A stretch of DNA of 64,000 nt from NCBI GenBank assembly GCA_963848965.1, contig CAWKFG010000001.1:288001-352000 (forward strand), read 5' to 3'. The stretch is from an uncultured bacterium. Lineage in GTDB: Bacteria > Babelota > Babeliae > Babelales > Babelaceae. Both the position numbers and the translations under genes were made by a program. The notes beneath the pieces are model-generated. The model worked only from the letters and a program-made list of their open reading frames with translations, was not told the origin of the DNA and made no database searches. Below are positions 2,021-62,683 of the stretch, piece by piece; positions within the stretch are counted from its first letter, which is position 1, and each line of letters begins with the position of its first letter.

Positions 2021-3406
2021 TCAAGATAGTGTATCTAATTGATTAAGTTGTATGGCATATTTTTCGTAAAGTTCTGGACATGCACCTGCTTTAAAAAGAG
2101 CAAGAACAAGTTTGACAGCTTTTTTTGTTACTGCAAAGGTTAGAAGTTTTTTTCCTTCTTGGGCTACTTGCTCAAGCAGAGCTCCAAAAAGAGTGATGAA
2201 CGTTGCAGCAAAATCAAAATTTTCACCTAGTAGAGCATAATCGAGAATAGTATATCCAGCAAGACTTCTAGCATTTAATGAGACAGAAGAAAGAGAGCAG
2301 TCTTTTAAGCTAGTAAGAATAGTAGTATGATCACAAAGAGCTGCATACATAAGGAAAGAGCATCCTTTACTGATTGTTGTAAGAGAAAGTTTTTCTTGCT
2401 GAATACTTTTAGAAAGCAGATCATGCACAAAAAATTCTGGATTTTTACAATATGTTTGCAGTGAAGGTTCTTGGTAAAGTTCCAAAAGATGAATAATGAA
2501 CTTATAATCCTCTTGATTCCCAAAGATAGAAAATTCGGGACTACGGCCGGCGTGAGTATATTCTTTTTGGGCAGCTTCTATACACTGTGGACTTATAGAA
2601 GCACCGTGGCAAAGCAGAGTAGCTACAGCTGCTTTCTTTCCTTTAGATACTGCATGATAAAGAGCAGACTGATTATTACTATCGAGCATGGTAACAGAAG
2701 CTCCTTTTTGTATAAGGAGAAGTATTGTATTTTTATGACCACGTAATGCAGCAGCCATAAGAGCTGACCTAGTGAATGTATGTGGAGGATTAACAAATGC
2801 ACCATGATCAATGAGAATTGAGGTTATTTCATTGTATCCTACAGCTGCAGCTCTTTCTAAGGGGCGCCACTGGCCAAAGTCCCAATTTACATCTGCTTTA
2901 TGTTGTAGTAATAACAGTACAATATCTTTGTTGTTCTTATCTATTGCATGTAATAAAGGCGTTTTTCCAAACCAATCTTTACTATTGGTGGAAGCACCAT
3001 ATTTAAGTAGTGTCTGCACTATATCGTAGCGCTCATGTATAACTGCATATATAAGAGCTGTTCTTTTATACTGATCTTGTAAATCAATTTGACTTTTACC
3101 ATGCTCAATAAGATATTGTGCAATTTCACTATGTCCAAGCTCTGCTGCAAGCATAAGTGGGGTTTTATTATCTCTATCGTGTGCGTTAATGTTTACAGGT
3201 TTGTCTGATTCTAAAAGTTCTTTGACTCGTACGTAATTATTATGAATAACCGCATCCGACAGTTCATCTTCTAAGGTTATGACTTTTTCTAGAAAAGATG
3301 CTTCAGATGGGGATTTTTGTGTCTCTTCAAATGATCGTTTCATACTAAAGCAAGAGGTGCCTACTGTTATAAGTATGAGTATAGTAGAGAGGCTACTTAG
3401 ATTCAT
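2021..3406 (-). CDS. Ankyrin-repeat protein with signal peptide, putative effector
   Basis: Repeated TPLMLAA/TALIYAV/TPLLHAI/SALMAAA ankyrin motifs; N-terminus MNLSSLSTILILITVGTSCFS-MKR. Confidence 0.92.
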   Translation of the reverse strand: MNLSSLSTILILITVGTSCFSMKRSFEETQKSPSEASFLEKVITLEDELSDAVIHNNYVRVKELLESDKPVNINAHDRDNKTPLMLAAELGHSEIAQYLIEHGKSQIDLQDQYKRTALIYAVIHERYDIVQTLLKYGASTNSKDWFGKTPLLHAIDKNNKDIVLLLLQHKADVNWDFGQWRPLERAAAVGYNEITSILIDHGAFVNPPHTFTRSALMAAALRGHKNTILLLIQKGASVTMLDSNNQSALYHAVSKGKKAAVATLLCHGASISPQCIEAAQKEYTHAGRSPEFSIFGNQEDYKFIIHLLELYQEPSLQTYCKNPEFFVHDLLSKSIQQEKLSLTTISKGCSFLMYAALCDHTTILTSLKDCSLSSVSLNARSLAGYTILDYALLGENFDFAATFITLFGALLEQVAQEGKKLLTFAVTKKAVKLVLALFKAGACPELYEKYAIQLNQLDTLS

Positions 3407-3577
3407 GGATATTTCCTTGCTACTCTAGAAGAATTGCTATTTACTATTAACCTTATTATACAGCAAATTAAAAAAAATAAAATTTGTGGTTTGTAGACTG
3501 GCTTTATGTATTATCCTTGACATTAAAATTATCCTATTAGTATTATTAATAAAAATAATGAAATAAAAGGAGTAGTT

Positions 3578-4357
3578 ATGTATAAATATTTATTTGTTAT
3601 GAGCATGTTTTCTTATTCTCTTCTAGGTATGGAAGGAAGAGAACCTGCTTTATCTGCGCAAGAAGAAAAGTCTTTTTTAAGTATTTTGCCTGCAGAGCTG
3701 CGACAGGAGCTTTCTGAATTTAAGAAAGAAACTATTGCTCAAGAGTTTAGAGAGAAATTTGCTCAAAAGGCAATACCGCAAACAGAGCAGATTGATTTTG
3801 TAGTAAAACGATTAAAGGATCTTAAAATAAATTTAGATGTTCCTATGTTAAATGCTTTTTTAGAGTTATTGCAAGCGAGATATGGCTGGTATGGAGAGGG
3901 AGGCTCGGAGTATCTTGGACCTAGAAGACTTCGTATTGCTGCACGGTTAGCTACTCCAGCAGCAATACAATGGTTGCAAGAGCAGATAAAGAATCCGCAG
4001 ACACGAAAAGAGTTCATGGAGCTTGTGAAAAAAGTCATTCAACTTGGAAAACATGATGAAGCTACCCTCAACGAGGTTAAATCGTATCTTGCTGCTTTAG
4101 GTGATGTTAATGCTACAGATCAGTATGGATGGACTGCTTTAATGTTTGCAGCAAGTGGTAATCTTCCTGTCGTACAGTTTTTACTTGATAATAAAGCAAA
4201 TGTTAACCTTCGCCATAGGACTCAGGATGAAGCAAAGACTGCTTTACAGATTGCGCAGGAATGGAGAGAAAGATTGCAAAGATGGAAAAATCTAGACGAT
4301 GTTGCTAGGCTTGATCAAATTATCAAACTACTTAAAGATCATGGAGCACAGGAATAA
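3578..4357 (+). CDS. Signal-peptide protein with F-box-like motif and C-terminal ankyrin repeats
   Basis: DVNATDQYGWTALMFAASGNLPVVQFLLDNKANVN ankyrin repeat; FLSILPAELRQEL near N-terminus; RBS AAGGAG. Confidence 0.85.
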   Translation: MYKYLFVMSMFSYSLLGMEGREPALSAQEEKSFLSILPAELRQELSEFKKETIAQEFREKFAQKAIPQTEQIDFVVKRLKDLKINLDVPMLNAFLELLQARYGWYGEGGSEYLGPRRLRIAARLATPAAIQWLQEQIKNPQTRKEFMELVKKVIQLGKHDEATLNEVKSYLAALGDVNATDQYGWTALMFAASGNLPVVQFLLDNKANVNLRHRTQDEAKTALQIAQEWRERLQRWKNLDDVARLDQIIKLLKDHGAQE

Positions 4358-4374
4358 GGTATACTATTGAATGT

Positions 4375-4405: not shown

Positions 4406-6253
4406 TCACTGAGCTAACTTGTCAAGCTCTTGCACAAGTTTTTCAATACCAAGCTCTTCTATTTCAACACCCCATTTTTTAATAACTTGATTGCTGGTAG
4501 GGTCAACAATAAGGTACGTTGGGAACCCCGCAATAGAGGAGCCATAAAGTTTTTTAACTTCTTCATAATCTGTTGTATGAACATCAGAATCGAGCTTAAG
4601 AGGTATATAACGTTGTAATACTTTCAGTATTCGATCATTATGGAATATAGTTCTGTCTAAAGATTTACAAGCACCACAATAGGTAGCACCTATGTCAATA
4701 AAGAGACGCTTATGTTCTTTTTTGGCTCGTTCTACTACTTGTGTATAATCATTGAGCCAAATAGATGGTTTTTCTTGAGGATAAAAGTGTTCATGCGTTG
4801 CTTTATACCCTTGTGCTGCCATAATGCAGGCAAGTACAATAAAGAGGGTCCCCATAAAACTCTTGTATCGTCGTACCCACTTACTATCATAGGAGGTCAC
4901 ACTCATAAAGTAGTAGATACCAAGCGCTAATAAGCTGGCTACAATAATCCAGACAAGGATATACCATGGGAAATACTTCTCTAAGTGTGACAGATGATAA
5001 AAGCCCATACCCATAAGCATAATACCAAAAATCTTTTTGACTTCAACCATCCACATACCTGCTCGTGGAAGCATGTTCATTGAGCTGGAGAAGGTCCCAA
5101 TAATAAGAAGAGGCAAGCTTGAGCCTATGCCAAAGAAAAAGAGAAGGATAAACCCTTCAATGTATCCTGTAAGGCTTCCTGCCGTGCTTATGCTTGCTAC
5201 ATAGTTAAGAATAAGAGCAAGACCAGGAGATAAGCAGGGTGATGCTATAGTACCACTTATTGCACCAAAGAGGAATGCAGAAAGAAATGATCCTCCTTTA
5301 ACTTGTGTACTTTTCGGTTGTAAAAAGCGAGGAATATACATCTCATAGAATCCAAACATAGAGCCACCAAAATAAAAGAGAATGGCGGCAATGGGTACAA
5401 CTATCCATGGACTTCCTTGCATTTCTCCAAAGACACAACTACCGAGCGCTGCAATAAAGCCAAGCAGGGCAAATGTTAAAGAGATGCCCAGCGTATAAGA
5501 AGATGCTAAAAGAAAGTTACGAAAAGGAGATTTGCTTGTATTTGCTTGTAAAATGCCTACGGTAATAGGAATCATTGGATAAATACATGGTGTTAAACTT
5601 AGTAATATTCCTAAAATAAGAGCTGCAAGTATTCTAATAAAGCGAGAACCAGTAGAGGTAAATAAAGAAGTAAGAGTTTGTTTCCATGTGTTTACAGTGG
5701 TACTTACTGAATTTACGACACGTTGCATAAAATTTCCCCACAGTGACGGTTGTGGTACTTCACATGAGACATCATTACGCGGCGTATACGACTGAGCTGT
5801 GGAGTTTGTAGCAGATGTTGTAGTCTCTTTTCCTGCTTGTTCTAATGTGGGCTCTGAAAATTTTAGAGCGATAGTTTTTTCCTGCGGTTGTTGGGTGCTA
5901 CTTACATTAAAATGCGTGTGAATAAGAGCATCATTTACTTCTTGTTTTGGATCTTTTTGTGCTTCAAATGTAAAAGAGACTTTATCTTTGTAGCCTTCTT
6001 TTTGTGCTTTAAATGCTTTGTCAAAAAAGGAGCTTGTTTGTCCATCGACAGTTATTCCAGAAAGCTTTATATGAGGTGTATTAACAGAAGGGAGAAAGCT
6101 ATCTTTATAAAGATACTCATGTGGCTCAAGATTTACTGTAACAGCTATTCGTTGGTTGTTTTCGTTTATTTTCTCTGTTTTGTAGGTATATTCATAGCTA
6201 AAGAGAGGTACAAAGTTGAGAATGGCGAGCACATGAAAGATCCGTAATTTCAT
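4406..6253 (-). CDS. dsbD: Thiol:disulfide interchange protein DsbD
   Basis: SLTPCIYPMIPI and ASPCLSP membrane cysteines, LPRAGMWM motif, C-terminal thioredoxin ATYCGAC. Confidence 0.92.
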   Translation of the reverse strand: MKLRIFHVLAILNFVPLFSYEYTYKTEKINENNQRIAVTVNLEPHEYLYKDSFLPSVNTPHIKLSGITVDGQTSSFFDKAFKAQKEGYKDKVSFTFEAQKDPKQEVNDALIHTHFNVSSTQQPQEKTIALKFSEPTLEQAGKETTTSATNSTAQSYTPRNDVSCEVPQPSLWGNFMQRVVNSVSTTVNTWKQTLTSLFTSTGSRFIRILAALILGILLSLTPCIYPMIPITVGILQANTSKSPFRNFLLASSYTLGISLTFALLGFIAALGSCVFGEMQGSPWIVVPIAAILFYFGGSMFGFYEMYIPRFLQPKSTQVKGGSFLSAFLFGAISGTIASPCLSPGLALILNYVASISTAGSLTGYIEGFILLFFFGIGSSLPLLIIGTFSSSMNMLPRAGMWMVEVKKIFGIMLMGMGFYHLSHLEKYFPWYILVWIIVASLLALGIYYFMSVTSYDSKWVRRYKSFMGTLFIVLACIMAAQGYKATHEHFYPQEKPSIWLNDYTQVVERAKKEHKRLFIDIGATYCGACKSLDRTIFHNDRILKVLQRYIPLKLDSDVHTTDYEEVKKLYGSSIAGFPTYLIVDPTSNQVIKKWGVEIEELGIEKLVQELDKLAQ

Positions 6254-16151: not shown

Positions 16152-17429
16152 ATGCTTATTATTATACCATTCGTACTCTTTTCCTTTTCTCTTTTTTCAT
16201 CGTTACGCATTGAAATGGATGGAGAACATCAATCTCTGAAAGCACCAATGAAACTTCTTCTTGCAATTGCATCAGACGATGATGAGCTCACAGAACTTGC
16301 AAAGATTATACAAGATAACTTTCAACGGAGTGGCCAATTTGTAGTTACTGTAGATATCCAAGAACATCCAAAAACTAAATCTGAAGTAAAAAAAATCTTT
16401 TCTTCTGGTTATTCACTCGTTACTTTTCTTAATCAAGCCGATAACAACAAATCATTTGAATGGCGCTTGTACGATGCTGTAGAGGCGCATATGGTAAAGG
16501 GCAAAAAGGTGCCCAAAAGCTTTTCCCTTCGCTCTCAAGCTAATAGCCTCTCTGACGACTTGTGGTATACGCTGACACACCAACCAAGCTCATTCTCTTC
16601 AAAGATAGCATATACTAAGAAACTTACAGGTGCTCATCGTCATCAATCTTCTATTTGTTTCTCTAATGCTGATGGCTCTGATAGCCAAATATTTATAGCC
16701 GCCCCCGGCACGTACGTTGGCCTTTATTGGCACAAAGACGGAGGGGAGCCTCTACTTTTCTGCTCAGAATTTACTCGCTTTAACGTACGTCTTATCTCCT
16801 TTACTCCTACCGCTCAGAAAAAGATTGTTCTTGATCTTAATGGAACGTGTGTAGGTATATCATTATCTGACGATACGTCAAAAGCCCTCTATTGCCGTTC
16901 TGGTGACATATGGCTCTATGCCTACGACTCTGCCATAAAAAGGGGCTCTCATAAGTGTCTTATTAAGAATGATGGCAAGAACATGTCACCCATCTTGTTA
17001 CCAAATAATGACATTATATTCTGTTCTGATTCACATAAGCTGTCACCCAAATTTCGAGGGCCGCACATCTATCTCTATTCACCTTCAACAGGTACTACAA
17101 AACAGCTGACCAAAGATGGATTCTGCGTAGGACCTGCATACTGTCCAAGAACCCAAAAACTTGCCTACTCCAAGCGAGTCAACGGAACAATGCAAATATA
17201 CCTCTATGACATGAAAACTGATAAGCATATTCAACTTACTACTGATAAAGGTGATAAGCTCGATTGCTGCTGGTCGCCATGCGGAACGTACCTCGCCTTC
17301 TGCCATCAACAGAACCGCACAAGCCGCATAGCTACTATGCATGCTGTACTCAAAAAACGCTTCTATATTACGCCTGAAAACCAGTACTGTTCGTGCCCTG
17401 CATGGTCAGATACTTCTGCTAGTCAGTGA
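16152..17429 (+). CDS. tolB: TolB-like periplasmic beta-propeller protein
   Basis: Signal peptide, TolB N-domain-like region (IQDNFQRSGQF, WRLYD), PD40-like repeats (GPAYCP, WSPCGTYLAF, PAWS); operon position. Confidence 0.8.
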   Translation: MLIIIPFVLFSFSLFSSLRIEMDGEHQSLKAPMKLLLAIASDDDELTELAKIIQDNFQRSGQFVVTVDIQEHPKTKSEVKKIFSSGYSLVTFLNQADNNKSFEWRLYDAVEAHMVKGKKVPKSFSLRSQANSLSDDLWYTLTHQPSSFSSKIAYTKKLTGAHRHQSSICFSNADGSDSQIFIAAPGTYVGLYWHKDGGEPLLFCSEFTRFNVRLISFTPTAQKKIVLDLNGTCVGISLSDDTSKALYCRSGDIWLYAYDSAIKRGSHKCLIKNDGKNMSPILLPNNDIIFCSDSHKLSPKFRGPHIYLYSPSTGTTKQLTKDGFCVGPAYCPRTQKLAYSKRVNGTMQIYLYDMKTDKHIQLTTDKGDKLDCCWSPCGTYLAFCHQQNRTSRIATMHAVLKKRFYITPENQYCSCPAWSDTSASQ

Positions 17430-31530: not shown

Positions 31531-32528
31531 TTATGTATTGTATAGTAGTATGTTTTACAGCTTTTTGTGATGCTTCATATTTTCGCTCGTGGCAAGCAGA
31601 TAAAGCATATGCTGCAGGCGATTTTGCTAGAGCACGTACCCTTTACCAAGAGGCTGTTGAAAAGAATCCTCAAGATTTGAAGGCATTATATAATGTAGGA
31701 AAAGCTGCATTTAAAGCAGAAGATTATGCTTCTGCTGCTCAAGCATTTGAAAAAGTAGGGACAACTGCTCTAACAGCACAGGAAAAAGAGCAAGCTTTTT
31801 TTAATCAAGGTGACAGCTTTGCAAAGCTCAGTCAGTATGAGAAAGCAGTTAATGCTTATAAAGAAGCACTTAAAATTAATCCTTCAAATGAACATATAAA
31901 GCAGCGTCTAGCACTTATGGAAAAACTTCTTCAAGAGCAAAAAAAGAAAGAGGAAGAAGAAAAGAAAAAGAAAGAAGAGCAGGACAAAAAAGAGAAAGAG
32001 CAGAAGCAAGAAAAGGAAAAACAAGAGAAAAACAAACAAGGCGAGCAAAAAGAGCAGAAGCAATCATCGCAACAAGAAGAAAGCGATAAAAAGAAAAAAC
32101 AGGACAAAGAGCAAACGCGCGGACAAGATTCGCAAAAAGAACGTGAGCAAGAAAAACAAAGGAAACAAGAGCAAACTCAACAAAGCGAACAAAAGGCCAG
32201 CGACGACCAAGCAGCTCAAGAAAAAGATAGAGCTCAAACTGGCAAACAGTCCGGTAGCCAAAGTGCAGAGCAAACTCGCAAAGAAGAAGCAGAGAAAGAA
32301 CAACAAGGTAAGCATAGTCAGCCCTCTCAACAAGAAATGCAAAAAAAGGAATCTGCTGCTTTAACATCACAGCAAACACGTAAAAGTATAGCAGATGAGC
32401 GATTAAATGTCTTGGAAAAAAAAGTATTAGAGGCTGCAGAACAAGAAGATACACAAATGTATAAAGCATTAGTAAAAACACAAATACAAGCAAAAATGCC
32501 GGCAAATTATGGTCAAAAAAATTGGTAA
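31527..32528 (+). CDS. batC: BatC-like TPR protein with Gln/Glu/Lys-rich tail
   Basis: TPR motifs (ALYNVG, AFFNQGD, YKEALKINP), low-complexity tail, C-terminal KNW; ATG 31527 overlaps batB stop. Confidence 0.82.
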   Translation: MIMYCIVVCFTAFCDASYFRSWQADKAYAAGDFARARTLYQEAVEKNPQDLKALYNVGKAAFKAEDYASAAQAFEKVGTTALTAQEKEQAFFNQGDSFAKLSQYEKAVNAYKEALKINPSNEHIKQRLALMEKLLQEQKKKEEEEKKKKEEQDKKEKEQKQEKEKQEKNKQGEQKEQKQSSQQEESDKKKKQDKEQTRGQDSQKEREQEKQRKQEQTQQSEQKASDDQAAQEKDRAQTGKQSGSQSAEQTRKEEAEKEQQGKHSQPSQQEMQKKESAALTSQQTRKSIADERLNVLEKKVLEAAEQEDTQMYKALVKTQIQAKMPANYGQKNW

Positions 32529-34725
32529 ATTACTTATACTATTGTATAGCACCTTTCTTGGTGCAGAAAGTGCTGTCGATCTTCAGATACTTTCAACAGC
32601 AGGGCAACCACTAAAAGCAGTTGCAGTAGGTGTACCCTTTGTTATTGCAGTAAGTTTGAAAAACTTTACGCAAGAGACAAATACACCTTATGTAGCTGGT
32701 ATAGAGCAGCTTGAGCTGTTACATACAAGTCAGCAGATGAACACTATGATTATTAATGGAACTACGACTAGTGAAAGAAAGTATCTTTTTCAAGTTCGCG
32801 CTCGTGAATCGGGTACACTCACAATTGGTCCTGCTTCTATTACAAAGCCACAAGCTTTACAATCTTCTGTAGTATCATTACCAGTCGAGGCAGAAAGCAC
32901 AAAAACCACTTTGAAAGGAAAAGCTCAGTATGAGTTTATTATAGACAAAAAAGAGCCCTTTGTAGGTGAAAAAGTTCCTTTTACTTTGCGTTTTTCTTAT
33001 GCCCAGCCAGATCTTAAAATACGTGCTTTAGAAGAACCTGAAGTAAAGGAGATACGTATACAAACAAATAAAGAAGTGATTGCAAAAAATGTAAGTCAAG
33101 CAGGGCAAGCATATACAGTACAAGAGGTGCACGGCTATTTATATCCAGAAGAGCCGGGCACATTTGTTCTTCCTGCTTTAATTGCAGAATTTGCAGCACC
33201 AGATACAAGCTTTGGCATCTTTTCGTTTTTTGCAAAACGGGAACAAATTTATTCAAATGCAGTTACTCTTAAAGTTTTACCGTTGCCACCTACATCTGAA
33301 GCAGCTCATGCTGTTGGCAAATTTAGAAATCTCTATGCTACTATAAGCCAGTCTCAGATTAATCAAGGAGAGGGTACAGCGCTTACTATCAGTGTAGAAG
33401 GAACTGGTAACGTAGAAAGTGCAAAAGCACCTACACTTGTGCTACCTGAAGGACTTAAATATTATGAATCAAAGGCAACGGTAGAAGGACAAGGTCCCGA
33501 CTATGTAAAGCGCTTTGAATATGTAGTGCAAGCAATTCAGCCGGGTGCCTGGCTGATTCCGCAGCAATCCTTTGTGTATTTTGATCCAGAAAAGAAAGCA
33601 TACAAAACATTATATACAAAACCTCTGCCGCTTGAAGTAAAAGAAGGAACTCCTGTAACTCCAGTAGAACAAGGTATGCCAGAAGAGCCGCAAGAACAAC
33701 CGAGTGCTGAAAAAGATTTTATCCCACAGTCATTATGGCACTTACCGCTGTGGTTGTTTGCTTGTTTATTAGCATTTCCTTTATTTGTATTAGTGAGTAA
33801 AGAGCTCTTTATACGTTTACAACAACTATTACGCAAAAGGTATACAGGATATCGAGCGTTTGCTGCAGCTCGTAGTAAGATTAAGAATGCTCAAGCAGAT
33901 ACTCTTTATACTTCTATCAAAGAAGCATTTGCACAGTACTTGGTAAAAAGTTCTATTACTCAGGAAGATATTGAGAAAGTACTTACAGCATGGGGTCTTA
34001 CATATGAAGAAAAGATGCAATGGCAGCAGTTTGTAACAGCGCTATTAGAGCATAGTTCTTACGCACCATCCCATAGTAAAAAAAATGTAAAAGAGCTTAT
34101 ACATGAAGCAGATACATGGCTTTCTCTGTTTTATAAGAAAGCAAAAATGCAACCAACGCTCACTCTTATGATGCTCTGTCTTATCTCTTTTTCTCTTGTT
34201 TCTGAGCCACGTGAAGGGCTTCTTAATAAAGCTCTCTATATGCGTAGAGCAGAACAGACAACGTGGGGCTCGGATGTCGCTTCTATAGATACAGAGGTTG
34301 AAAATCTTAAAGAGCAAGCGGGAACAGTATCGAGAAAGCGATATTCTCCTTTATTTACAACACTTTATTATGCTTTTAGCAAAGTGCCCTTTGTCATATG
34401 GCAGCTTTTTTTTATTTGCCTCTGGTGGGCTTTAATTTTCTATGGTAGCCTAGTCAAAATGCGCTATCGTATCCTCCTTGTGCTTGCATGGCTCTTTGTA
34501 GGATGGGGCGTAATAACAATAGTGTATGGAAAATATGGACAATGGGCTTTTGTACAGAGATCACAAGCACTTCTGTATATTGGACCAGATACGACATATC
34601 CAAATAAGGGAGAACTCAGTTTTTTAGATGAGGTATATACAATGAAAAAACAAGGTAACTGGTATTATGTATCATCCCCTCTTGGTACAGGATGGCTATC
34701 TGGTAGAGACATAGAGCTTGTATAA
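32509..34725 (+). CDS. batD: BatD-like protein fused to a BatE-like TM/SH3 region
   Basis: IINGTTT, LTIGPA, AVGKF, VEGTGNV, YFDPEKKAY motifs; C-terminal LYIGPDTTYP...GNWYYV...GTGWL. Confidence 0.8.
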   Translation: MVKKIGKLLILLYSTFLGAESAVDLQILSTAGQPLKAVAVGVPFVIAVSLKNFTQETNTPYVAGIEQLELLHTSQQMNTMIINGTTTSERKYLFQVRARESGTLTIGPASITKPQALQSSVVSLPVEAESTKTTLKGKAQYEFIIDKKEPFVGEKVPFTLRFSYAQPDLKIRALEEPEVKEIRIQTNKEVIAKNVSQAGQAYTVQEVHGYLYPEEPGTFVLPALIAEFAAPDTSFGIFSFFAKREQIYSNAVTLKVLPLPPTSEAAHAVGKFRNLYATISQSQINQGEGTALTISVEGTGNVESAKAPTLVLPEGLKYYESKATVEGQGPDYVKRFEYVVQAIQPGAWLIPQQSFVYFDPEKKAYKTLYTKPLPLEVKEGTPVTPVEQGMPEEPQEQPSAEKDFIPQSLWHLPLWLFACLLAFPLFVLVSKELFIRLQQLLRKRYTGYRAFAAARSKIKNAQADTLYTSIKEAFAQYLVKSSITQEDIEKVLTAWGLTYEEKMQWQQFVTALLEHSSYAPSHSKKNVKELIHEADTWLSLFYKKAKMQPTLTLMMLCLISFSLVSEPREGLLNKALYMRRAEQTTWGSDVASIDTEVENLKEQAGTVSRKRYSPLFTTLYYAFSKVPFVIWQLFFICLWWALIFYGSLVKMRYRILLVLAWLFVGWGVITIVYGKYGQWAFVQRSQALLYIGPDTTYPNKGELSFLDEVYTMKKQGNWYYVSSPLGTGWLSGRDIELV

Positions 34726-35676: not shown

Positions 35677-36552
35677 ATGAAAGTTATGCAACGAATACTC
35701 GGTAGATTTTATGATGTTCCTTTAATAAGGCTCGTATTTGAGATAGTTTTTGTCATTTTACCAGTAGCGTTTCTTATTCGAACGTTCGGATTTGGCTTAT
35801 ATCAAGTCCCTACAGGTTCAATGGAAACAACATTGTTGGTAGGTGAACGGTTCTTTGCAGATAAGTTAAGTTATTGGTTTAGACCTCCACAACGCGGAGA
35901 AATTATTGCATTTAATGATCCACGTTATCCTTATTCTTCAAACTCTGCGGTAAATTTTTGGCAGCGGTATGTCTCTTGGAATGTATCTAACTGGACAAAG
36001 CGTGTTATAGGTGTTCCGGGCGATCATGTGCAAGGAAAGATAGAAGATGGTAAACCTGTAGTCTATGTAAATGATGTTAAGCTTGATGAAAGTGCATACA
36101 TAAATAAATACCCGCTTATTATGGTATGGAAACAACCAGGAACATTTACTGAAGGTGCTCGCAAACGTGAATGGGACCAAAAGACATTTGATCCTGCATT
36201 GCCGTGGGATAAACAACTCTATTATAAGATCAATCCTAATAGTATTGTAGTAAATCCTCATACTCTTGAACCTTATGTTGCTTATCCAGGTACTCCACAT
36301 CCTGCTGGTAAAGATGTTTTTGACGTACATCTTAAGGAGAATGAGTATTGGGTAATGGGAGATAATAGGCAAGGAAGTTCTGACTCTCGAGAATGGGGAG
36401 TACTTGATGGAAAGCTTATTCACGGTAAAATTATCTATAGAATATGGTCGATGGATACTAGTGAGTCTTGGTGGTTTATAGACTTGCTTAAGAACCCTAT
36501 CAGTTTCTGGAAAAAAGTGCGCTGGAATAGGTGCTTTCAGTGGGTTAAGTAA
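35677..36552 (+). CDS. lepB: Signal peptidase I
   Basis: VPTGSMETTL, KRVIGVPGD, MGDNRQGSSDSREWG. Confidence 0.95.
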   Translation: MKVMQRILGRFYDVPLIRLVFEIVFVILPVAFLIRTFGFGLYQVPTGSMETTLLVGERFFADKLSYWFRPPQRGEIIAFNDPRYPYSSNSAVNFWQRYVSWNVSNWTKRVIGVPGDHVQGKIEDGKPVVYVNDVKLDESAYINKYPLIMVWKQPGTFTEGARKREWDQKTFDPALPWDKQLYYKINPNSIVVNPHTLEPYVAYPGTPHPAGKDVFDVHLKENEYWVMGDNRQGSSDSREWGVLDGKLIHGKIIYRIWSMDTSESWWFIDLLKNPISFWKKVRWNRCFQWVK

Positions 36553-37908: not shown

Positions 37909-38256
37909 ATGGAACAGGCAGAAAAAGTAAAAGGATGGGATGTCTTTAACAAACCTACGAGTTGGTATGTGCATTTAGGCATGTTTTTTGTTATTGGTTT
38001 TGTAGGTGGATTTGTGCTCAAGCATTTTGGTCGCTATATTATATTTCTTCTTATTATAGGTGGCCTTTTATTGTGGAGCTTAGAATTGCTTAATATTATT
38101 ACCATTAACTATGCTTCTTTTAAAGCTCTTATGGGGCTTTCAACTGATACAACGCTTAATGGATTAGGTACTGAACTAAGTAACTGGATACATACACATA
38201 TCTCAGAGACTATTGCTCTTGGACTTGGGTTTGTCTTTTCATGGATGTTTATGTAG
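37909..38256 (+). CDS. Small membrane protein, FUN14-family-like
   Basis: LGMFFVIGFVGGFVLKHFGRY...GGLLLWSLELLNIITINY...GLGFVFSW resembles the FUN14 pattern by eye. Confidence 0.6.
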   Translation: MEQAEKVKGWDVFNKPTSWYVHLGMFFVIGFVGGFVLKHFGRYIIFLLIIGGLLLWSLELLNIITINYASFKALMGLSTDTTLNGLGTELSNWIHTHISETIALGLGFVFSWMFM

Positions 38257-39413
38257 CAACCGACGCTCCTGCTATAGCACTAGTTGATGATATTATTAGT
38301 AAAGCAGTACATCTACGAGCTTCGGATGTTCATATAGAGCCTACGAGTACTTACTTGCGAATAAGAATACGTGTTGACGGTCTTTTGCATGATAGTAGTA
38401 CTATAGGCTCAGACTATGCACGACAAGTTATTTCTCGTATTAAAGTGCTTTCTCACATGGATATCTCAGAGCGTCGTATTCCCCAAGATGGAAAATTTAT
38501 CTTTTCTTATGAAAAGCACGCCATTGATGTGCGCGTAGCTACATTTCCTAGCATCTATGGAGAGAAGGTTGTTCTTCGTATTTTAGACAGAAGCACAACT
38601 GCACTTGCTTTAGAAGAGTTAGGATTTGATGCTATGTTGCTGGAAACAATACAAAAGCTTTCTCAACGAGCTACAGGTTTTTTTCTTGTTACAGGTCCTA
38701 CAGGATCAGGCAAAACAACAACATTACATGCAATGCTTGCTGCAGCACGAACGACATCAAAGAATATCGTATCACTTGAAGATCCTATTGAATACACAAT
38801 AGAGGGTATAACACAAGCACAGATATATCCTGCAATTGGTTTTACCTTTGAGCATGGTATTCGTGCTTTATTAAGACAGGATCCTGATATTATTATGGTG
38901 GGAGAAATACGAGACAAACAAACTGCACATGTTGCTTTACAAGCAGCAATAACGGGGCATCTTGTGTTAAGTACATTGCATACTAATGATGCTACAAGCT
39001 CTGTAGTACGGTTACTCGATATGGGTATTGAGCCGTTTTTGTTAAATGCTGCAGTAACAGGTGTTCTTTCTCAACGGCTTGTACGTAAACTGTGCAATGA
39101 ATGTAAATACCTTACGCCATTATCAGATGTAGAAAGTACGTTTATACAAGAGTATAAAATTCCTCTTGTAAGCTCATATATAAGTAGGGGTTGCACATCC
39201 TGTAGAGGAATAGGGTATAAAGGACGCATAGGACTATTTGAGCTTTTGGTTATGTCTCATGAACTTCGTGCTTTAATTATGCAACGACCTTCTTTTGATA
39301 CTCTTTACAAGCAAGCATGTACTGAAGGTATGAGACCATTATTGCTTGATGCTGCAGATAAAATAGATACAGGTAGTACGAGTGTGGTAGAGGTTATGCG
39401 TGTTCTTATGTGA
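38241..39413 (+). CDS. GspE/PilB-family secretion ATPase lacking the N-terminal domain
   Basis: RASDVHIEP, ERRIPQDG, TGPTGSGKTTTL, EDPIE, LRQDPDIIMVGEIRD, STLHTND, two CxxC. Confidence 0.95.
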   Translation: MDVYVATDAPAIALVDDIISKAVHLRASDVHIEPTSTYLRIRIRVDGLLHDSSTIGSDYARQVISRIKVLSHMDISERRIPQDGKFIFSYEKHAIDVRVATFPSIYGEKVVLRILDRSTTALALEELGFDAMLLETIQKLSQRATGFFLVTGPTGSGKTTTLHAMLAAARTTSKNIVSLEDPIEYTIEGITQAQIYPAIGFTFEHGIRALLRQDPDIIMVGEIRDKQTAHVALQAAITGHLVLSTLHTNDATSSVVRLLDMGIEPFLLNAAVTGVLSQRLVRKLCNECKYLTPLSDVESTFIQEYKIPLVSSYISRGCTSCRGIGYKGRIGLFELLVMSHELRALIMQRPSFDTLYKQACTEGMRPLLLDAADKIDTGSTSVVEVMRVLM

Positions 39414-39531: not shown

Positions 39532-39580
39532 TTGATTTAATGGCAATTTAATGGCATAATAATGGCAAATTAATGGCATT
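39532..39580 (+). promoter_or_regulatory. Promoter overlapped by four 11-bp-period direct repeats (TAATGGCA)
   Basis: TAATGGCA at 39538, 39549, 39560 and 39571; TTGATT-N17-CATAAT. Confidence 0.7.
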
Positions 39581-39593
39581 GAAAGTGCAACAT

Positions 39594-40688
39594 ATGTTTA
39601 ATCCTTGTTTTACTATAACTACCTATCTAGCCTCTCTGCTCATGCGTATAGAAGGGTTACGTCAAGAAATTACTCTGTTACCTATTAATCCTTCTGTTTT
39701 GGCAAGTTTAAGAGAAACAGCTTTGTTGTCTTCAGTACATTATTCTACTGCTATTGAAGGTAATAGATTGACTGAAGAAGAAGTTATAGAAGTAATTTCT
39801 CATAATGTGCATATCTCTGGAAAAGAACGAGATGAGCATGAAGTATTAGGATATTATGCTGCTTTAGATGAGCTTGAGCGCTTAGTATTACGTAAAGATC
39901 CTTTAACTGAGAAGGTAATTCAAAAGTTACATGCTCTTGTAATGGCAGGAGGGAAAAGAAGAGTAAAATCAACACCCTATAGACGAGGGCAAAATGTAAT
40001 CCGGCAAGCTGGTAATAGAGCAATTGTTTATATGCCACCAGAGACTCAAGATGTTCCTCTTCTAATGCATGATTTAGTTGTGTGGATTAATAAAGCAAAC
40101 CAGGAATATCTTCCATGTCCTTTACGGGCGGCAATAGCTCATTATCAATTTGCTACTATTCATCCTTATTATGATGGTAATGGAAGGACGGCTCGATTAC
40201 TCGCAACGCTTATTTTACATCAAGGTGGCTACGATCTTAAAGGTCTTTATTCGCTTGAAGAATATTATGCAAAAGATTTGGGCACATATTACCAAGCGTT
40301 AACCATAGGGCCTTCGCATAATTATTATATGGGTAGAGCAGAGGCTGATATTACGTCCTGGCTTGAATACTTCTGTGCTGGGATGCTTGAGAGCTTTGAG
40401 AAGGTCAAAAATCAAGCGCTCAAAGCACAAGGAAGAGGATCTGTAGATACTTCTGAAACATTAAAATACCTTGATGTTCGACAAAGAAAGGTTCTTTCCG
40501 TTTTTTATCATCGAGAAGTAATTACTTCATATGATGTTGAAAAATTATTGCGTGTAAGGCCTCGAACTGCACGAGCGCTATGTAAGCAGTGGGTAGACAG
40601 CGGTTTTTTGATCATTGCTGATGCTTCTAAGAAAAGCAGAAAGTATAAGCTTGCACAACGCTATAATGATTTGAAGGGGAACCTTTAA
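39594..40688 (+). CDS. Fic-domain protein (class II-like) with probable C-terminal winged helix
   Basis: HPYYDGNGRTAR active site; STAIEGN inhibitory motif; start probably MFNP at 39594 (longest ORF begins 39573). Confidence 0.93.
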   Translation: MFNPCFTITTYLASLLMRIEGLRQEITLLPINPSVLASLRETALLSSVHYSTAIEGNRLTEEEVIEVISHNVHISGKERDEHEVLGYYAALDELERLVLRKDPLTEKVIQKLHALVMAGGKRRVKSTPYRRGQNVIRQAGNRAIVYMPPETQDVPLLMHDLVVWINKANQEYLPCPLRAAIAHYQFATIHPYYDGNGRTARLLATLILHQGGYDLKGLYSLEEYYAKDLGTYYQALTIGPSHNYYMGRAEADITSWLEYFCAGMLESFEKVKNQALKAQGRGSVDTSETLKYLDVRQRKVLSVFYHREVITSYDVEKLLRVRPRTARALCKQWVDSGFLIIADASKKSRKYKLAQRYNDLKGNL

Positions 40689-52241: not shown

Positions 52242-54176
52242 ATGAACAAAAAACTGTTAACTCTTTCTTTATCAGTAGTAGCTACTATTTATAGCGCGAC
52301 TTCTGACGAATCTTCTGTCTTCACTACCAACTGCGCCTCTGGTGTAGCTGTTAAGCAAAAGAAGACGGACACGGTCGTTCCTAAAGAGCTACTTCCAGCA
52401 AATAAGCTTCCTTTTTATTATACCTCAGGAAGTAGTTTTTTTAAAGGGTTGTTTGCCTTTACTCCCTATGGGTTTTTTGCAAAAAATATACTACTTTTTA
52501 ATAACCATGAACCATCTGATAGACTAGCATATGCGCTTTTTCATACGTTTGATCTTGGTTTTGAATATTACTATGGAGATGCGGCAAAAAAGCGATTTCC
52601 TGTAGTTGCACGAGGTATTTTAAGAAATCAAGCAGTATGGGGCGATCCAAGAATATTATTACGGACTATTGATGAAAGTATAAGAGATACAACTATTTTT
52701 GCAGAAGGGGTACATAGGCATGAGCTTCTCTTGCATGTTCCCTGGGTCCAGGAGTTGTGGCTCGCGCTTGATTTATCAGAACTTCTATGTTTGCCATTTT
52801 GTCATGCTCATGCATTAAAAATAGGGGCGTTCCCTTTCTATGTAGGTCGTGGTATTGCTCTTGGTTACTTTTTTTATAGAAACCCTAATCAAATTACTGT
52901 TGATATTACCACTGTTATTAGTCAATATGTGTTTGGAGGATTACTTTCAGGAGAGATTATTCCTAAAAAGCTCTACTATGATATATATGGGGGTATTTTA
53001 GATAATCGTTCAGCTACGTTTGAGCAAACAGAGCGACCTGTTTTGCGTAATGAATATGGTCATAGAAATACTCCTCAGCGTGGTTTTGGTAAAATCAATT
53101 TTATAGCAGCTGCACGGTTACGTGCAGCTCTTGTAAGTGAAAAAGACAAGAATATCTATCTTGAACCCTATGTTGTATATAACAATAATCCTGAGTCTCT
53201 CACTGAATTTCCAGCCGATTCTCAAAGAAAGCTTGGCAGTGCAGGCCTTGCATTTAACGCTGCCTTTAAAAAAGTAGACTTTGGCTTTGATATGGCATTT
53301 AATTTTGGGCGCCACCATACAAATGGCGTAGACAGGAATTTAATTTTTAACTATAACAGGGATGGTATAAATACTTTAGCAAATACTCATGTGTTTGCTC
53401 TTGATAATAATGTGCTCGATTTTGCATTAGTTACTCCTGAAAATCAGCAAATTATTAGAAATTCTTTGCAAAGTAGCTTTGAAAATGAGCAAGTTATTGG
53501 ACAAACAGAAAGTGGTGTGCTTATTAATGCTGCAAACAGATTTCGCGATCCCTTTGATATTATATTTAAAGGGAAGATGTTTATTTTTGATGCAGGTTAT
53601 ACTGTCATTGATCCTTCTTTAAGAATCAGTTGGGTAGTAGGGTTTGCAACAGGGGGTAGTGAACAGGTTTCAACGCGAAAAATTATTTTGAATGATTTTA
53701 TTGGTATTAATGAGTTTTATCAAGGAACTCGAGTTGCATCATTCTTTGTACCTCTTGCAGTTTCCCGCTTTAGTAATCTTATTGAAGTAGGAGGAGGATT
53801 TTTATGGCAAGTAACAGCATGTAAAAGGCTTTGGAAAGTCAATCCTAATGCTCTTGCCTACTGGAAGTATAGTGCGCCTTTTGCTTTTGATCCAGAGACT
53901 CAAACAGATTCTCTTATTCGCCGTGCGCGTAAATATATAGGTACTGAGCTCAATATACAAGCATTTGTAGAACTATTTCCGGATTTTAAGTTCTTTGCTA
54001 TAGGAGCGCTTTTTTTTCCTGGATCTTTTTTTAGAGATAACATTGGAAGACCCATAAGGGCTAGTATTATACGTTTAATTAATAGAGAAAATAGGACAGG
54101 GATCTTGGGAAATATCCCAGTGCAAGGAGCAGACACAGCGTATTTTGGATATGTTGGTTTTGAATACAGATATTAA
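52242..54176 (+). CDS. Putative outer-membrane beta-barrel protein
   Basis: Signal peptide, aromatic-rich alternating strands, C-terminal YFGYVGFEYRY. Confidence 0.7.
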   Translation: MNKKLLTLSLSVVATIYSATSDESSVFTTNCASGVAVKQKKTDTVVPKELLPANKLPFYYTSGSSFFKGLFAFTPYGFFAKNILLFNNHEPSDRLAYALFHTFDLGFEYYYGDAAKKRFPVVARGILRNQAVWGDPRILLRTIDESIRDTTIFAEGVHRHELLLHVPWVQELWLALDLSELLCLPFCHAHALKIGAFPFYVGRGIALGYFFYRNPNQITVDITTVISQYVFGGLLSGEIIPKKLYYDIYGGILDNRSATFEQTERPVLRNEYGHRNTPQRGFGKINFIAAARLRAALVSEKDKNIYLEPYVVYNNNPESLTEFPADSQRKLGSAGLAFNAAFKKVDFGFDMAFNFGRHHTNGVDRNLIFNYNRDGINTLANTHVFALDNNVLDFALVTPENQQIIRNSLQSSFENEQVIGQTESGVLINAANRFRDPFDIIFKGKMFIFDAGYTVIDPSLRISWVVGFATGGSEQVSTRKIILNDFIGINEFYQGTRVASFFVPLAVSRFSNLIEVGGGFLWQVTACKRLWKVNPNALAYWKYSAPFAFDPETQTDSLIRRARKYIGTELNIQAFVELFPDFKFFAIGALFFPGSFFRDNIGRPIRASIIRLINRENRTGILGNIPVQGADTAYFGYVGFEYRY

Positions 54177-54517: not shown

Positions 54518-54787
54518 TTAACGAGGTGCAAGATGTTCTTCAATTGCTATGTTTCTGCTTTGAACTTGACCGAAAACCCTTGGGAACTCTCCGGCTGCAG
54601 GAGTATCTTCAACATTAGGCAGAATTGTTTCTGTAGCGGTTTCTGCTAATCTTGCTCTATGCGCACCAAATTGCTCTACAGGTTGTGTTGAAACAGGTCC
54701 TGGAGTTGTTGCAGGTGGTTGTTCTGGGATCTGTGCATTCATTCCAAACATAGGAACTAAAAGTAAGGTTAACATAAGATTCTTCAT
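54518..54787 (-). CDS. 89-aa secreted peptide, array member 4
   Basis: Leader MKNLMLTLLLVPMFGMNA; TAAGGAG RBS. Confidence 0.82.
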   Translation of the reverse strand: MKNLMLTLLLVPMFGMNAQIPEQPPATTPGPVSTQPVEQFGAHRARLAETATETILPNVEDTPAAGEFPRVFGQVQSRNIAIEEHLAPR

Positions 54788-54919: not shown

Positions 54920-55192
54920 TTAAGGTCCTACCTTTGTTACAGTGCTTGGACCTTCTCCTGGGCGTATAATGGTTCCTTCTGTTGGAATTGGAAAGTGGCC
55001 TGCAAAACCTTCTTTACCAACTATAATAGTTGAAGGTTGCCCAATTCCACTTTCTGATTCAATAAATCTTCCTCCTTTAGGTGTAATAGCTTGTGTTCCC
55101 TTTTCTCCTTGTTGATAAATAAATGCAACTCCAGGTTCAGAGGCTTTTGAAGGAATTATAAATATAATAGATAAGAAAAATGCATATTTCAT
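54920..55192 (-). CDS. 90-aa secreted Gly/Pro-rich peptide, array member 3
   Basis: Leader MKYAFFLSIIFIIPSKA; TAAGGAG RBS and shared upstream block. Confidence 0.8.
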   Translation of the reverse strand: MKYAFFLSIIFIIPSKASEPGVAFIYQQGEKGTQAITPKGGRFIESESGIGQPSTIIVGKEGFAGHFPIPTEGTIIRPGEGPSTVTKVGP

Positions 55193-60595: not shown

Positions 60596-60599
60596 GGAG

Positions 60600-61190
60600 T
60601 TAAGCGCCTACTTCAAAGCGTACAAATCGTCTAATTTTAACATTCTCGCCTAATTTAGCTATAAGCTCTTTAAGAACGTCATGCACCGTAAGCTTTTCGT
60701 CTTTAATAAATGGTTGATTAAGAAGACAAATATCAGTGTAATATTTTTGCAGTTTGCCTTCTATAATTTGGTCAATGATTTGAGCTGGTTTACCTGCAAG
60801 CTGCTCACGGTAGATAGCTTTCTCTTTTTCAACTAAAGCAGGATCAACATCTACAGAGCTTACGCATACTGGTCTAAATGCAGCAATCTGCATGCACATA
60901 TCGTGCGCAAACTTTGCTATTTCTTCAGTACGAGCTACAAAATCTGTTTCGCAGTTGATTTCAATTAATACTCCAACACGAGCTCCTGGATGAATATAGG
61001 CATGTACAATACCTTCTGCAGTTATATTGCCTGCACGCTTTTCAGCAACGGCAGCACCCTTTTTTCTTAAAAGCTCAATTGCTTTTTCTATATCGCCGTT
61101 TGCTTCTTGTAAAGCTTTTTTACAATCCATCATGCCAATGCCGGTACGTTCACGTAGTTTCTGTATAAGTTCTAAAGAAATTTCAGCCAT
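60600..61190 (-). CDS. tsf: Elongation factor Ts, short form
   Basis: LRERTGIGMMDCKKAL, EINCETDFVAR; start trimmed to MAEI after AGGAG. Confidence 0.97.
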   Translation of the reverse strand: MAEISLELIQKLRERTGIGMMDCKKALQEANGDIEKAIELLRKKGAAVAEKRAGNITAEGIVHAYIHPGARVGVLIEINCETDFVARTEEIAKFAHDMCMQIAAFRPVCVSSVDVDPALVEKEKAIYREQLAGKPAQIIDQIIEGKLQKYYTDICLLNQPFIKDEKLTVHDVLKELIAKLGENVKIRRFVRFEVGA

Positions 61191-61324
61191 AAAGCTCCTT
61201 GCTAGAGAAATAATTTTCTCATTAAGTGTGCCAGAAATCAGGCCATTGAGCAATGGCAAAATTTTCATTGTTTACAAGTTCCACTTTCTTGTCTATGGCT
61301 GTACTTTATTTCTAGAGCTCTCTA

Positions 61325-62683
61325 TTAGCTGATGAGGCATTTACTTTTTTGTTGTGGATGCTGTGGCAGCTCATATTCATGATCTTTAATAATATTAAAT
61401 ATCGTATAAATGTTTAACTGTGCAAGTATTGAATGAATGTCAAATAAATAAGCTGTACCATTAAGAAAGACGCTAAGGGCATAGTGACCTTTTGGGTGTG
61501 TTATAAGAGAGGGTGTATATGCTTTCACATTTTTTACATTAAATCCTAGAGCGATATCTTTAATAAATGTGTGTTCTTTAAGATCCAGTATTCTTAGTCT
61601 AAGCTCTTTGGTAAGTGCTCTAGGATAGTTGTCAAAGGTTGTAACTAGAGCATAATGCTCGTTATGTGTGGTTGTCATACGTAGAACAGATTCTCGCCCG
61701 GGAAGCCTAATTTCGTGGTCTATTTTGTCTGTCGTAAGATTTGCTACATATATAAAGCCATGGCCATCGGCTAGATAAAGAAAATTTCCATCTTTACTGT
61801 AGGTAAGGACATTAAAAAAAGCATGGCCGGGCTTATCATAGCGTATATGGCGAATAGATCCGTCTCTAAGTGATACTAGTTCTATTGCTTGTTCAGATTG
61901 TGAAGCTACTGCAAATTGTGTCTTATCTGGATTAAATGCACCTTGGGCCATAGATGGCTGAAAGTGTGTAGGCTGGCCGTTTGGTATTGGTATTACAGTA
62001 TTTTCTGGAGAGGAAGATACTATGTTTTTTATATAAGTAATTCGTTTATCAGTAGTGATAACAATACTGTTCATGGAGTCTTTATCATTACTAAAAGTTA
62101 CCATTACTGGTGTTGATGGTAATGTATGTTCTTGTAAGCATATGCCAGTCTCTAGACTCCAGACTTGCATTTTATTATGGCGTGTTCCTACTAGTGCATA
62201 GTTACCATCGTTGCTTATTGCTAAGCACGAAATAATTCCTTTATAACCACCAAATTTTAGTTTGCATTCATGAGTAGTGATGTCAATAAGGTAACAGTAG
62301 CACTGGACATCGGATCCAAAAAGAATATATTTACCATCAGGAGTAAATTCACCACATGTGAAAATTGTATTGGCATTTTCTACTGTATTTATTGGTGGTA
62401 TAAAACCAGCTATAGAGGGCTGTGCTGGTGAATATTTCATGAGAATATACGAATAGCGCTCAATAAGATACTGTAATAAGCTATCCTTAACAGGATATGG
62501 TAGGCTGTTTAGTTCATTAATAAGCTTTTCTCGCTGTACTGTAGGCGCTGTATTTATTTGTTTTCTAAGTGCTGTAATACAGCTTTCAAATAGTGAAGAA
62601 AAGTGCTTATTTTCAGGTGGTTCCATGCCTTGTAAAAGAGTAAAGAAAGAGCAGAGAAAGAGTATATTTTTTATATGATGCAT
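61325..62683 (-). CDS. Signal-peptide WD40/beta-propeller protein with F-box-like motif and C-terminal CaaX box
   Basis: FTPDGKYILFGS, ISCLAISNDGNYALVGT..MQVWSLETG; LNSLPYPVKDSLLQYL; ends KSKCLIS. Confidence 0.82.
   Translation of the reverse strand: MHHIKNILFLCSFFTLLQGMEPPENKHFSSLFESCITALRKQINTAPTVQREKLINELNSLPYPVKDSLLQYLIERYSYILMKYSPAQPSIAGFIPPINTVENANTIFTCGEFTPDGKYILFGSDVQCYCYLIDITTHECKLKFGGYKGIISCLAISNDGNYALVGTRHNKMQVWSLETGICLQEHTLPSTPVMVTFSNDKDSMNSIVITTDKRITYIKNIVSSSPENTVIPIPNGQPTHFQPSMAQGAFNPDKTQFAVASQSEQAIELVSLRDGSIRHIRYDKPGHAFFNVLTYSKDGNFLYLADGHGFIYVANLTTDKIDHEIRLPGRESVLRMTTTHNEHYALVTTFDNYPRALTKELRLRILDLKEHTFIKDIALGFNVKNVKAYTPSLITHPKGHYALSVFLNGTAYLFDIHSILAQLNIYTIFNIIKDHEYELPQHPQQKSKCLIS

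Follow-up and report, generated by a model that had tools for sequence, protein, structure and literature searches.

A methionine follows the predicted signal peptide directly in many proteins

In the genome of an uncultured bacterium of the Babelaceae, a Sec-type leader peptide followed directly by Met was found in 231 to 277 of 1472 open reading frames (ORFs), depending on the detector, that is in about 16–19% of ORFs. The genome (GenBank assembly GCA_963848965.1, referred to as G000) comprises 1.73 Mb in five contigs with 37% G+C. The window, a stretch of 64,000 nucleotides of contig CAWKFG010000001.1 (C1:288001-352000), is where an initial annotation had described eight unrelated proteins with a signal-like peptide ending in a small residue, followed by Met and a polar residue. 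All eight N-termini read as described there (Table 1), and the observation proved to be real and far larger than eight proteins, given that the rule spans the genome. All eight leaders are tripartite, with a basic n-region, an uncharged hydrophobic h-region and a short c-region. Met in eight out of eight cases, compared with 3.4% Met in that zone, corresponds to a p of about 2e-12, so that chance is no explanation of the window cases, whose true background is the genome-wide rule.

The ORF set consists of non-overlapping frames of at least 80 aa, each taken from the most upstream ATG, GTG or TTG, and it is crude in that some starts are over-extended. A glutamyl/glutaminyl-tRNA synthetase ORF (L170:6884-8407, contig C4), scored as leader-bearing, is probably a case of such an over-extended start. 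An uncharged hydrophobic 9-mer near the N-terminus was present in 756 ORFs, and in 166 of them Met stood just before the first charged residue, the background frequency of Met being 1.67%. Counted by position, Met reached a peak of 6–8.5% at residues 19–22 of the ORFs with the hydrophobic 9-mer, versus 2–3% in the others. Sites of the (-3,-1) type were then counted within residues 16–34 of leader-bearing ORFs, with a small or aliphatic residue at -3 and A/G/S/C at -1. Met followed such sites in 277 cases (12.1%), compared with 3.4% for the zone and 1.77% (817/46162) for protein interiors. Moreover, a matrix of 15 positions in which +1 is disregarded predicted 342 leaders at a score of at least 11, under cross-validation with half of the cases for training and the rest for scoring. 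Their +1 residue was Met in 154 and Leu, the next most frequent, in 24, whereas 9 of 1013 interior controls reached that score. A looser detector returned leader plus Met in 272 of the 1472 ORFs versus 12 of 1016 interior controls. The Met rule is thus genome-wide in G000.

The predicted cleavage site and the start codon

The 166 cases picked solely for a Met before the first charged residue display the classical (-3,-1) pattern: -1 is A/G/S/C/T in 161 of them, for a leader-zone share of 38%, and -3 is L/S/I/T/V/A/C in 156. The predicted cut thus falls just before the Met, as the initial annotation had supposed. A logo of 231 leaders showed an enrichment of Lys at residues 2–3 (about 30%) and an h-region rich in L/F/I/S. 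Judged by their sequence, these are genuine leaders of the Sec/signal peptidase I type with a predicted cut directly before the Met. Other known processing signatures were not recognised: the +1 residue of the tagged proteins is Met and not the Cys of a lipobox; the logo contains no Arg or Leu pattern of the RxLxE/Q/D (PEXEL) kind, its conserved positions being -3, -1, +1 and +2; and Gln, the +1 residue of the Q-rule, was found in 15 of the 342 predicted leaders, against 154 with Met.

The residue after the Met is also biased. In the 231 tagged ORFs, +2 is E in 54%, Q in 14%, K in 12%, D in 3% and N in 3%, and hydrophobic in only 16 of 231, whereas the second residue after the true initiators of G000 is K in 21%, N in 10%, I in 9% and E in 6%. 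The commonest mature openings are MEK (45), MEP (22), MEQ (17) and MKR (14), and the compositional bias of the mature N-terminus fades beyond about residue 10. Substrates of the eukaryotic N-terminal acetyltransferase NatB keep their Met and have Asp, Glu, Asn or Gln as the next residue. The NatB-type termini pointed out in the window recur as a match of sequence only in 170 of 231 mature termini (E 125, Q 32, D 7, N 6). A further hydrophobic 19-mer is absent from 184 of the 231 tagged proteins.

A Shine-Dalgarno-like 4-mer at -17 to -5 precedes 62% of the 231 upstream starts (69% of the ATG starts) and 59% of other genes. The same motif precedes 1% of the Met codons of the rule and 11% of interior Met codons. 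This difference between upstream start and Met supports that the leader is translated and that the Met is not the real start, so the possibility of the internal Met being the true start codon, which would have undone the initial observation, was not borne out.

The rule is confined to a class of host-interaction proteins

Class counts were made over 800 kb (46% of the genome), with only the non-Met class scanned in the part from contig C4. In C1:180-580 kb the limits differed between the classes, tagged proteins being scanned at E<=1e-4 and non-Met leaders at E<=1e-8. The 61 tagged proteins of this region included 24 ankyrin, 8 C2H2 and 2 leucine-rich repeat (LRR) proteins and 1 with RING only, together with single Mito_carr, WD40, TPR and UCH proteins, 1 MutS-like protein, 1 Peptidase_S9, 1 pyridine-nucleotide oxidoreductase fused to thioredoxin, 1 weak thioesterase and 18 proteins without family. 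The Peptidase_S9 (C1:263176-265098) was reclassified as a false positive of the filter, since the 25 homologues examined lack the Met rule and the local sequence is a lipobox-like VAAC. Of 37 leaders in the same region first called non-Met, 3 do have Met at the predicted site (a C2H2 protein, an ankyrin protein and one orphan). The remainder comprised Ctp (S41+PDZ), a TolC-like OEP, FtsX, FtsW, a Big-domain protein, amine oxidase, LigT, PAF-AH, AAA, DnaJ and MutS-like proteins, 2 ankyrin, 1 MYND and 1 WD40 proteins, and 19 without family.

After reclassification of the peptidase, eukaryote-like repeat or domain proteins of C1 were split into 41 with Met and 4 without, and other recognised proteins into 3 and 12 (Fisher p = 4.6e-7). 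The enrichment of Met in proteins with eukaryote-like domains, which the initial annotation had suggested verifying with SignalP, was therefore recovered with our own leader calls, apart from a few eukaryote-like exceptions.

A further 48 leaders of C4:1-400 kb classed as non-Met were scanned at E<=1e-6. Those without Met included two Omp85/BamA, SurA_N, a class A penicillin-binding protein, GH1, PGA_cap, HAD, five glycosyltransferases and an FkbM methyltransferase, and in 7 of the 48, among them three ankyrin proteins and one WD40 protein, a Met occupies the predicted site or follows it by two to three residues. The five glycosyltransferases and the FkbM methyltransferase stand in a row (L172:1447-15359, C4:301-315 kb), all with leaders and no Met, which places exported enzymes outside the Met class.

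Among 125 ORFs with ankyrin motifs, leader plus Met was scored in 90 by the detector and in 13 more by eye; about 7 have Met-less leaders and the rest are leaderless. The rule is confined to a host-interaction class of ankyrin, C2H2, LRR, RING, WD40, UCH and orphan proteins, and was not seen in BamA (two copies), SurA, Ctp, DsbD, BatD, the TolC-like protein or the exported glycosyltransferases.

Two groups of leader-bearing proteins on C1 deserve separate mention. Seven tandem C2H2 proteins (L004:13097-19821, L005:895-1884; C1:233-241 kb), all with leader and Met, have up to 11 fingers and are strongly eukaryote-like (zf-H2C2_2 down to E=7e-112). In addition, two MutS domain V proteins of roughly 1010 aa (L013:4295-7330 and L015:5305-8358) carry leaders, one with SLQA followed by MES and the other with LLYG followed by QEF; an exported MutS-like ATPase is unexpected.

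The rule is confined to part of the bacterial order

Nineteen further genomes of the order were sampled, at 20–100 kb each, and analysed with the same script (Table 2). Among 15 usefully sampled families, the sampled genomes of five, and partly those of a sixth, follow the rule; the samples of three others (f13, f15 and f16), of 20 kb each, were too small to judge. The check in related genomes proposed by the initial annotation thus gave a divided answer, with the rule found in several families (f1, f17, f18 and others) and none in the samples of f5, f7, f8, f10, f11, f12 and f14. The (-3,-1) statistic agrees with this division: Met follows 9–15% of sites in six rule genomes, compared with 2.6–4.7% Met in the zone, and 1–4% of sites, near the zone frequency, in the seven genomes scored as "none". 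In G079 and G141, the leaders of ankyrin-motif ORFs end directly before ME, MQ or MK. The rule is therefore confined to part of the order.

Table 2. Met at +1 of matrix-predicted leaders in relatives of G000
Genome	Family	Rule	Met at +1 / predicted leaders
G079	f1	rule	7/21
G141	f1	rule	3/5
G001	f2	rule	3/14
G005	f3	rule	7/27
G130	f17	rule	11/27
G138	f18	rule	9/17
G127	f4	partial	3/8 and 1/8
G110	f3	weak	3/19
G040	f6	weak	3/13
G041	f10	none	1/16
G019	f8	none	1/16
G047	f5	none	0/15
G069	f14	none	0/16
G010	f7	none	0/10
G096	f11	none	0/10
G045	f12	none	0/13

A tree of 22 sequences of signal peptidase I (LepB) shows one deep split (support 100/100), with all ten sequences from rule genomes on one side, together with those of f5, f6, f8, f13 and f14. 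A single origin of the rule may be compatible with this tree, which is that of one gene and not a species tree. LepB proteins of one deep clade (L183, L184, L192, L194, L195; f10, f11, f15, f16) are about 360–410 aa long, with a long N-terminal extension, and are often tandemly duplicated, and those of the clade containing G000 have about 290–325 aa. In G069 (L093-L097), Ser occupies +1 in 8 of 16 predicted leaders, and this may be another lineage-specific preference at that position.

The methionine is kept while leaders and proteins change

Of the tagged proteins, 76 are singletons; the others group into about 20 small families and an ankyrin component of 108 members. Only 43 of 26565 pairs of tagged ORFs have similar leader-plus-upstream DNA, which means that the leaders have diverged beyond recognition while the Met, a single codon, was kept. 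Such a pattern indicates that the Met is kept by selection and not by accident. Shuffling of a leader cassette was rejected as an explanation, as 33 of the 43 pairs are also alike in the mature part (ordinary paralogues) and most of the other 10 are neighbouring genes. Nor did leaderless paralogues beginning at the Met emerge, with 1 case among 72 N-terminal alignments to leaderless ORFs. Conservation of the Met in paralogue alignments is confounded by internal repeats and was not used.

Homologues of the carrier protein of the window were found in 20 of 151 genomes (G000 included), in 21 copies, all with leaders. At 27–45% identity, 12 of the 16 copies from the rule families f1, f3 and f4 retain the Met (11 of 15 if the query is left out), and all 5 copies of f6 lack it; the Met lies 16–22 residues ahead of the first carrier helix in the five copies read. 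The WD40 protein of the window has no orthologue in 150 other genomes at E<=1e-8, with one paralogue in G000 and two weak matches. The tagged class turns over fast, yet the rule persists.

Candidates for a reader or writer of the methionine

As a putative writer, a second, dedicated signal peptidase I was discarded, since G000 has a single Peptidase_S26 match, where many relatives have 2–4, and one is evidently enough. A change of LepB specificity was likewise not detected: in the 22-sequence alignment, no column has a residue that occurs in 9 or more of the 10 rule rows and in no more than 1 of the 9 non-rule rows. Copy number of secretins, considered for the reader, is 2–3 in all 18 families and has no link to the rule; in G000, three large tandem secretin genes (1142, 815 and 789 aa) lie outside the window at C4:764526-774999. 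No candidate reader of the tag emerged among the features compared, i.e. LepB columns and secretin number.

Three GNAT acetyltransferases with Met-less leaders are encoded outside the window (C4:739307-739843, C4:849042-849737 and C5:65882-66487). Export of such enzymes is odd, as no acetyl-CoA would be expected in the periplasm, and their site of action may be the host. The RimJ/L-like one (C4:849042-849737) was followed as a possible writer and rejected, its homologues being present in 0 of 20 other f1 genomes and sporadic in rule and non-rule families. The two M24 peptidases of G000 are leaderless.

Other genes of the window and envelope controls

Pfam annotation was extended to the remaining 44 ORFs of the window (80 aa or longer), and the features considered here are collected in Table 1. 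They include a ninth tagged case, absent from the initial list. The start of the giant ankyrin protein is a TTG at 9529 or an ATG two codons on, at 9535, and that of the RING gene is either 21596 or 21584. The four envelope proteins that had been cited as lacking the Met have the N-termini reported for them, and the names of DsbD and BatD were confirmed by Pfam; the names TolB and barrel were not, as neither the 425-aa nor the 644-aa protein has a Pfam family at E<=1e-7. A BatC-like TPR protein of the window also has a leader without Met. A Fic/DOC protein (39573-40688, +) and a eukaryote-type RRM protein (25437-25808, +) are leaderless and adjoin tagged genes, and a 90-aa ORF (54920-55192), neighbour of the ninth tagged case, has a leader without Met.

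Table 1. Tagged proteins, envelope controls and export-related genes of the window
Feature	Position	Strand	Observations
Ankyrin-repeat protein, 461 aa	2021..3406	-	SCFS then MKR after 21-aa leader; Ank_2 E=9.4e-48; Shine-Dalgarno-like AAGGAA 5' of first ATG
Ankyrin-repeat protein, 259 aa	3578..4357	+	SLLG then MEG after 17-aa leader; Ank_2 E=8.4e-09; AAAGGAG upstream
Orphan protein, 140 aa	6543..6965	-	NIYG then MKH after 21-aa leader; no Pfam family at E<=0.01
Giant ankyrin-repeat protein, 1386 aa	9529..13689	+	leader end ILQA then MQE; Ank_2 E=1.4e-250
RING-finger protein, 357-361 aa	20511..21596	-	leader end MSSC then MNQ; zf-RING_2 E=3.8e-07, Prok-RING_1 E=8.4e-07
Mitochondrial-carrier-family protein, 294 aa	40701..41585	-	YSYA then MEK after 20-aa leader; Mito_carr E=3.5e-25
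C2H2 zinc-finger protein, 693 aa	42542..44623	+	YTFA then MES after 19-aa leader; zf-C2H2 E=4.8e-07
WD40 protein, 452 aa	61325..62683	-	LLQG then MEP after 19-aa leader; WD40 families by Pfam
Ninth tagged case, 89-aa ORF	54518..54787	-	leader end PMFG then MNA; no Pfam family
Control, DsbD	4406..6253	-	leader end LFS then Tyr-Glu-Tyr, no Met; DsbD_TM E=2.5e-45
Control, 425-aa ORF (named TolB)	16152..17429	+	leader end LFS then Ser-Leu-Arg, no Met; TolB-like position after TolQ/TolR genes
Control, BatD	32509..34725	+	leader end LGA then Glu-Ser-Ala, no Met; BatD E=1.6e-24
Control, 644-aa exported protein (named barrel)	52242..54176	+	leader end IYS then Ala-Thr-Ser, no Met
Signal peptidase I (LepB)	35677..36552	+	Peptidase_S26 E=4.4e-36; single PF10502 match in genome; expected cutter before Met
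Type II/IV secretion ATPase	38241..39413	+	T2SSE E=1.3e-124; possible outer-membrane export machinery; second copy elsewhere in genome

Possible functions of the methionine

The Sec signal peptide of the tagged proteins would be removed by the only signal peptidase I of the genome, with the cut just ahead of the selected Met, and the mature protein would then start with Met-Glu or, less often, with Met-Gln, Met-Lys or Met-Asp. Met and its polar neighbour could in this way act as a tag of the mature N-terminus that is readable only after cleavage. Such a tag would give proteins delivered into the protist cytoplasm a normal eukaryotic terminus, with a retained Met of the initiator type, of the NatB kind, free of Met-hydrophobic or other N-degrons and in no need of co-translational trimming. 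We put forward tentatively, as a proposal that falls somewhat short of probable, that the selected Met exposed by signal peptidase I is a eukaryote-like terminus tag for host-delivered proteins. Several points weigh against it. In the classical N-end rule, Met shares its stabilising effect with Ala, Ser, Gly and Thr, so that this rule alone does not demand Met; NatB acts mainly on nascent chains, and the 12% of termini that are Met-Lys are not NatB substrates. The tagged carrier homologue is a multi-pass membrane protein which, with a Sec leader, should stay in the bacterial inner membrane. In the C1 sample, two ankyrin proteins, one WD40 and one MYND protein are eukaryote-like and have no tag. 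The ankyrin-motif ORFs of G041 (11) and G040 (8) have leaders with ordinary A-A, A-S or lipobox-like sites, so that export of an ankyrin protein does not in itself require the tag. Finally, the leaders were called by home-made rules and a self-trained matrix instead of SignalP.

Met-Glu might alternatively be recognised after cleavage, on the bacterial or vacuolar side, by a machinery that crosses the outer membrane or a host-derived one, as a sorting code to be likened to the processed PEXEL terminus or to the +2 rules of lipoproteins. This appears unlikely on the whole, although the rule coincides with the proteins that have to leave the periplasm and passes over envelope proteins and exported glycosyltransferases, the motif is short and strictly N-terminal, the lack of a further hydrophobic segment in most tagged proteins would suit it, and secretins and type II/IV ATPases are present. 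It is confronted with the lack of a candidate reader, with a secretin number that does not track the rule and LepB columns that do not separate rule from non-rule genomes, with leader-bearing ankyrin proteins in non-rule relatives, and with the tagging of a membrane carrier; moreover, type II secretion substrates are known to be recognised as folded proteins and not by a linear tag. The tagged carrier and the relatives without the rule weaken both this sorting code and the host-side terminus tag. The carrier is better accommodated if the Met is a functionless relic, the old initiator of eukaryote-like genes that gained a leader by extension of the frame upstream, as its Met lies shortly before the first helix. 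The split between classes would then come at no cost, ancient envelope proteins having always had leaders and acquired genes having had to add them, and AT-rich upstream DNA would, we infer, readily code for hydrophobic peptides. A relic is nonetheless improbable, since a neutral ATG should decay like the leaders, which are randomised, yet the Met is still there in about 103 of the 125 ORFs with ankyrin motifs, and the evidence that it is under selection weakens this reading. Glu at +2 is far more frequent than after the initiators of G000 and is not the dominant second residue in eukaryotes either. Furthermore, a single one of the 72 alignments to leaderless ORFs starts at the Met, the leader-bearing ankyrin proteins of f10 and f6 have no Met, and no Shine-Dalgarno remnant precedes it. 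Finally, the Met could be a second, internal start giving exported and leaderless cytoplasmic forms, or the upstream start an artefact of annotation. ATG is indeed a start codon, about 40% of G000 genes lack a Shine-Dalgarno-like motif, so that initiation without one exists, and the tract before the Met is U-rich. Such a start is nevertheless very improbable in view of the Shine-Dalgarno figures given above, of the full n-h-c and (-3,-1) structure in more than 230 genes, not expected of untranslated DNA, of a second-residue profile unlike that of real starts, and of the lack of evident use for a cytoplasmic copy of eukaryote-directed proteins.

The function proposed here, a eukaryote-like terminus for delivered proteins, is plausible, with the sorting code and the relic start codon as live rivals. 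A broader proposal, possible although rather doubtful, is that Met followed by Glu, Gln, Asp or Lys is a two-residue code marking the whole effector set of one Dependentiae clade for host delivery or host identity. If so, about 270 proteins, near a fifth of the proteome, would be marked, the code would be a bacterial analogue of the PEXEL terminus in malaria parasites, and the mature N-terminus, not an injection system, would decide arrival or persistence in the host.

Significance and comparison with known systems

Dependentiae, most of them uncultured, are widespread protist parasites for which no injection system is known, and this raises the question of how hundreds of Sec-exported eukaryote-like proteins are told from periplasmic ones and by which route they reach the host. 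With a near-invariant, selected Met at the cleavage site, the candidate effectors of a genome can be listed by a one-line sequence test, and experiments gain a handle. Moreover, its presence and absence across families constitutes a natural comparison for finding the reader of the tag. Residues after the cut are known to decide destination in lipoprotein sorting, through the +2 Lol-avoidance rule and the lipoprotein export signal of Bacteroidetes; these rules act on a lipidated Cys at +1 and signal peptidase II, whereas the tagged proteins have no lipobox.

Published work on Dependentiae also describes expanded sets of eukaryote-like proteins with Sec leaders that are thought to be secreted, with signal peptides in 79 of 126 ankyrin proteins in one study (PMC4378268) and in 44% of coding sequences and 78% of ankyrin proteins in another (PMC6561590). 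The main texts of both contain neither "methionine" nor "cleavage site", and the +1 Met, its class specificity and its patchiness are not described in them. A literature search on Dependentiae/TM6 signal peptides and N-terminal methionine found no paper describing the rule, which is apparently undescribed.

The Q-rule of Bacteroidetes is, like the Met rule, a lineage-specific, near-invariant +1 residue at ordinary Sec/signal peptidase I sites that sets the mature N-terminus, the residue being Gln there and Met here. According to two papers (PMC5837995, PMC10653852), this Gln is cyclised to pyroglutamate by a glutaminyl cyclase, and the rule covers most signal peptidase I substrates, periplasmic ones included. 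By contrast, the Met rule skips envelope housekeeping proteins, marks a host-directed class and holds in only part of its order; no modifying enzyme was found for it, one candidate acetyltransferase having been followed and glutaminyl cyclase itself not searched for. Neither methionine nor Dependentiae is mentioned in the text of PMC5837995. The Met rule would be the second example, after the Q-rule, of lineage-wide selection on the first mature residue of Sec substrates, and, unlike the Q-rule, it is class-specific.

The closest precedent in function may be the processed PEXEL terminus, also found on the host-directed proteins of an intracellular parasite, with a secretory leader and a processing site. 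According to one report (10.1101/2023.07.12.548774), its mature N-terminus consists of a small or any residue followed by Glu, Gln or Asp, and is needed for translocation into the host; Glu, Gln or Asp occupies +2 in 164 of the 231 tagged proteins. The RxLxE/Q/D motif is cut by plasmepsin V in the eukaryotic endoplasmic reticulum, well downstream of the signal peptide, whereas in G000 the predicted signal peptidase cut itself, in a bacterium, would create the terminus, and its first residue is Met.

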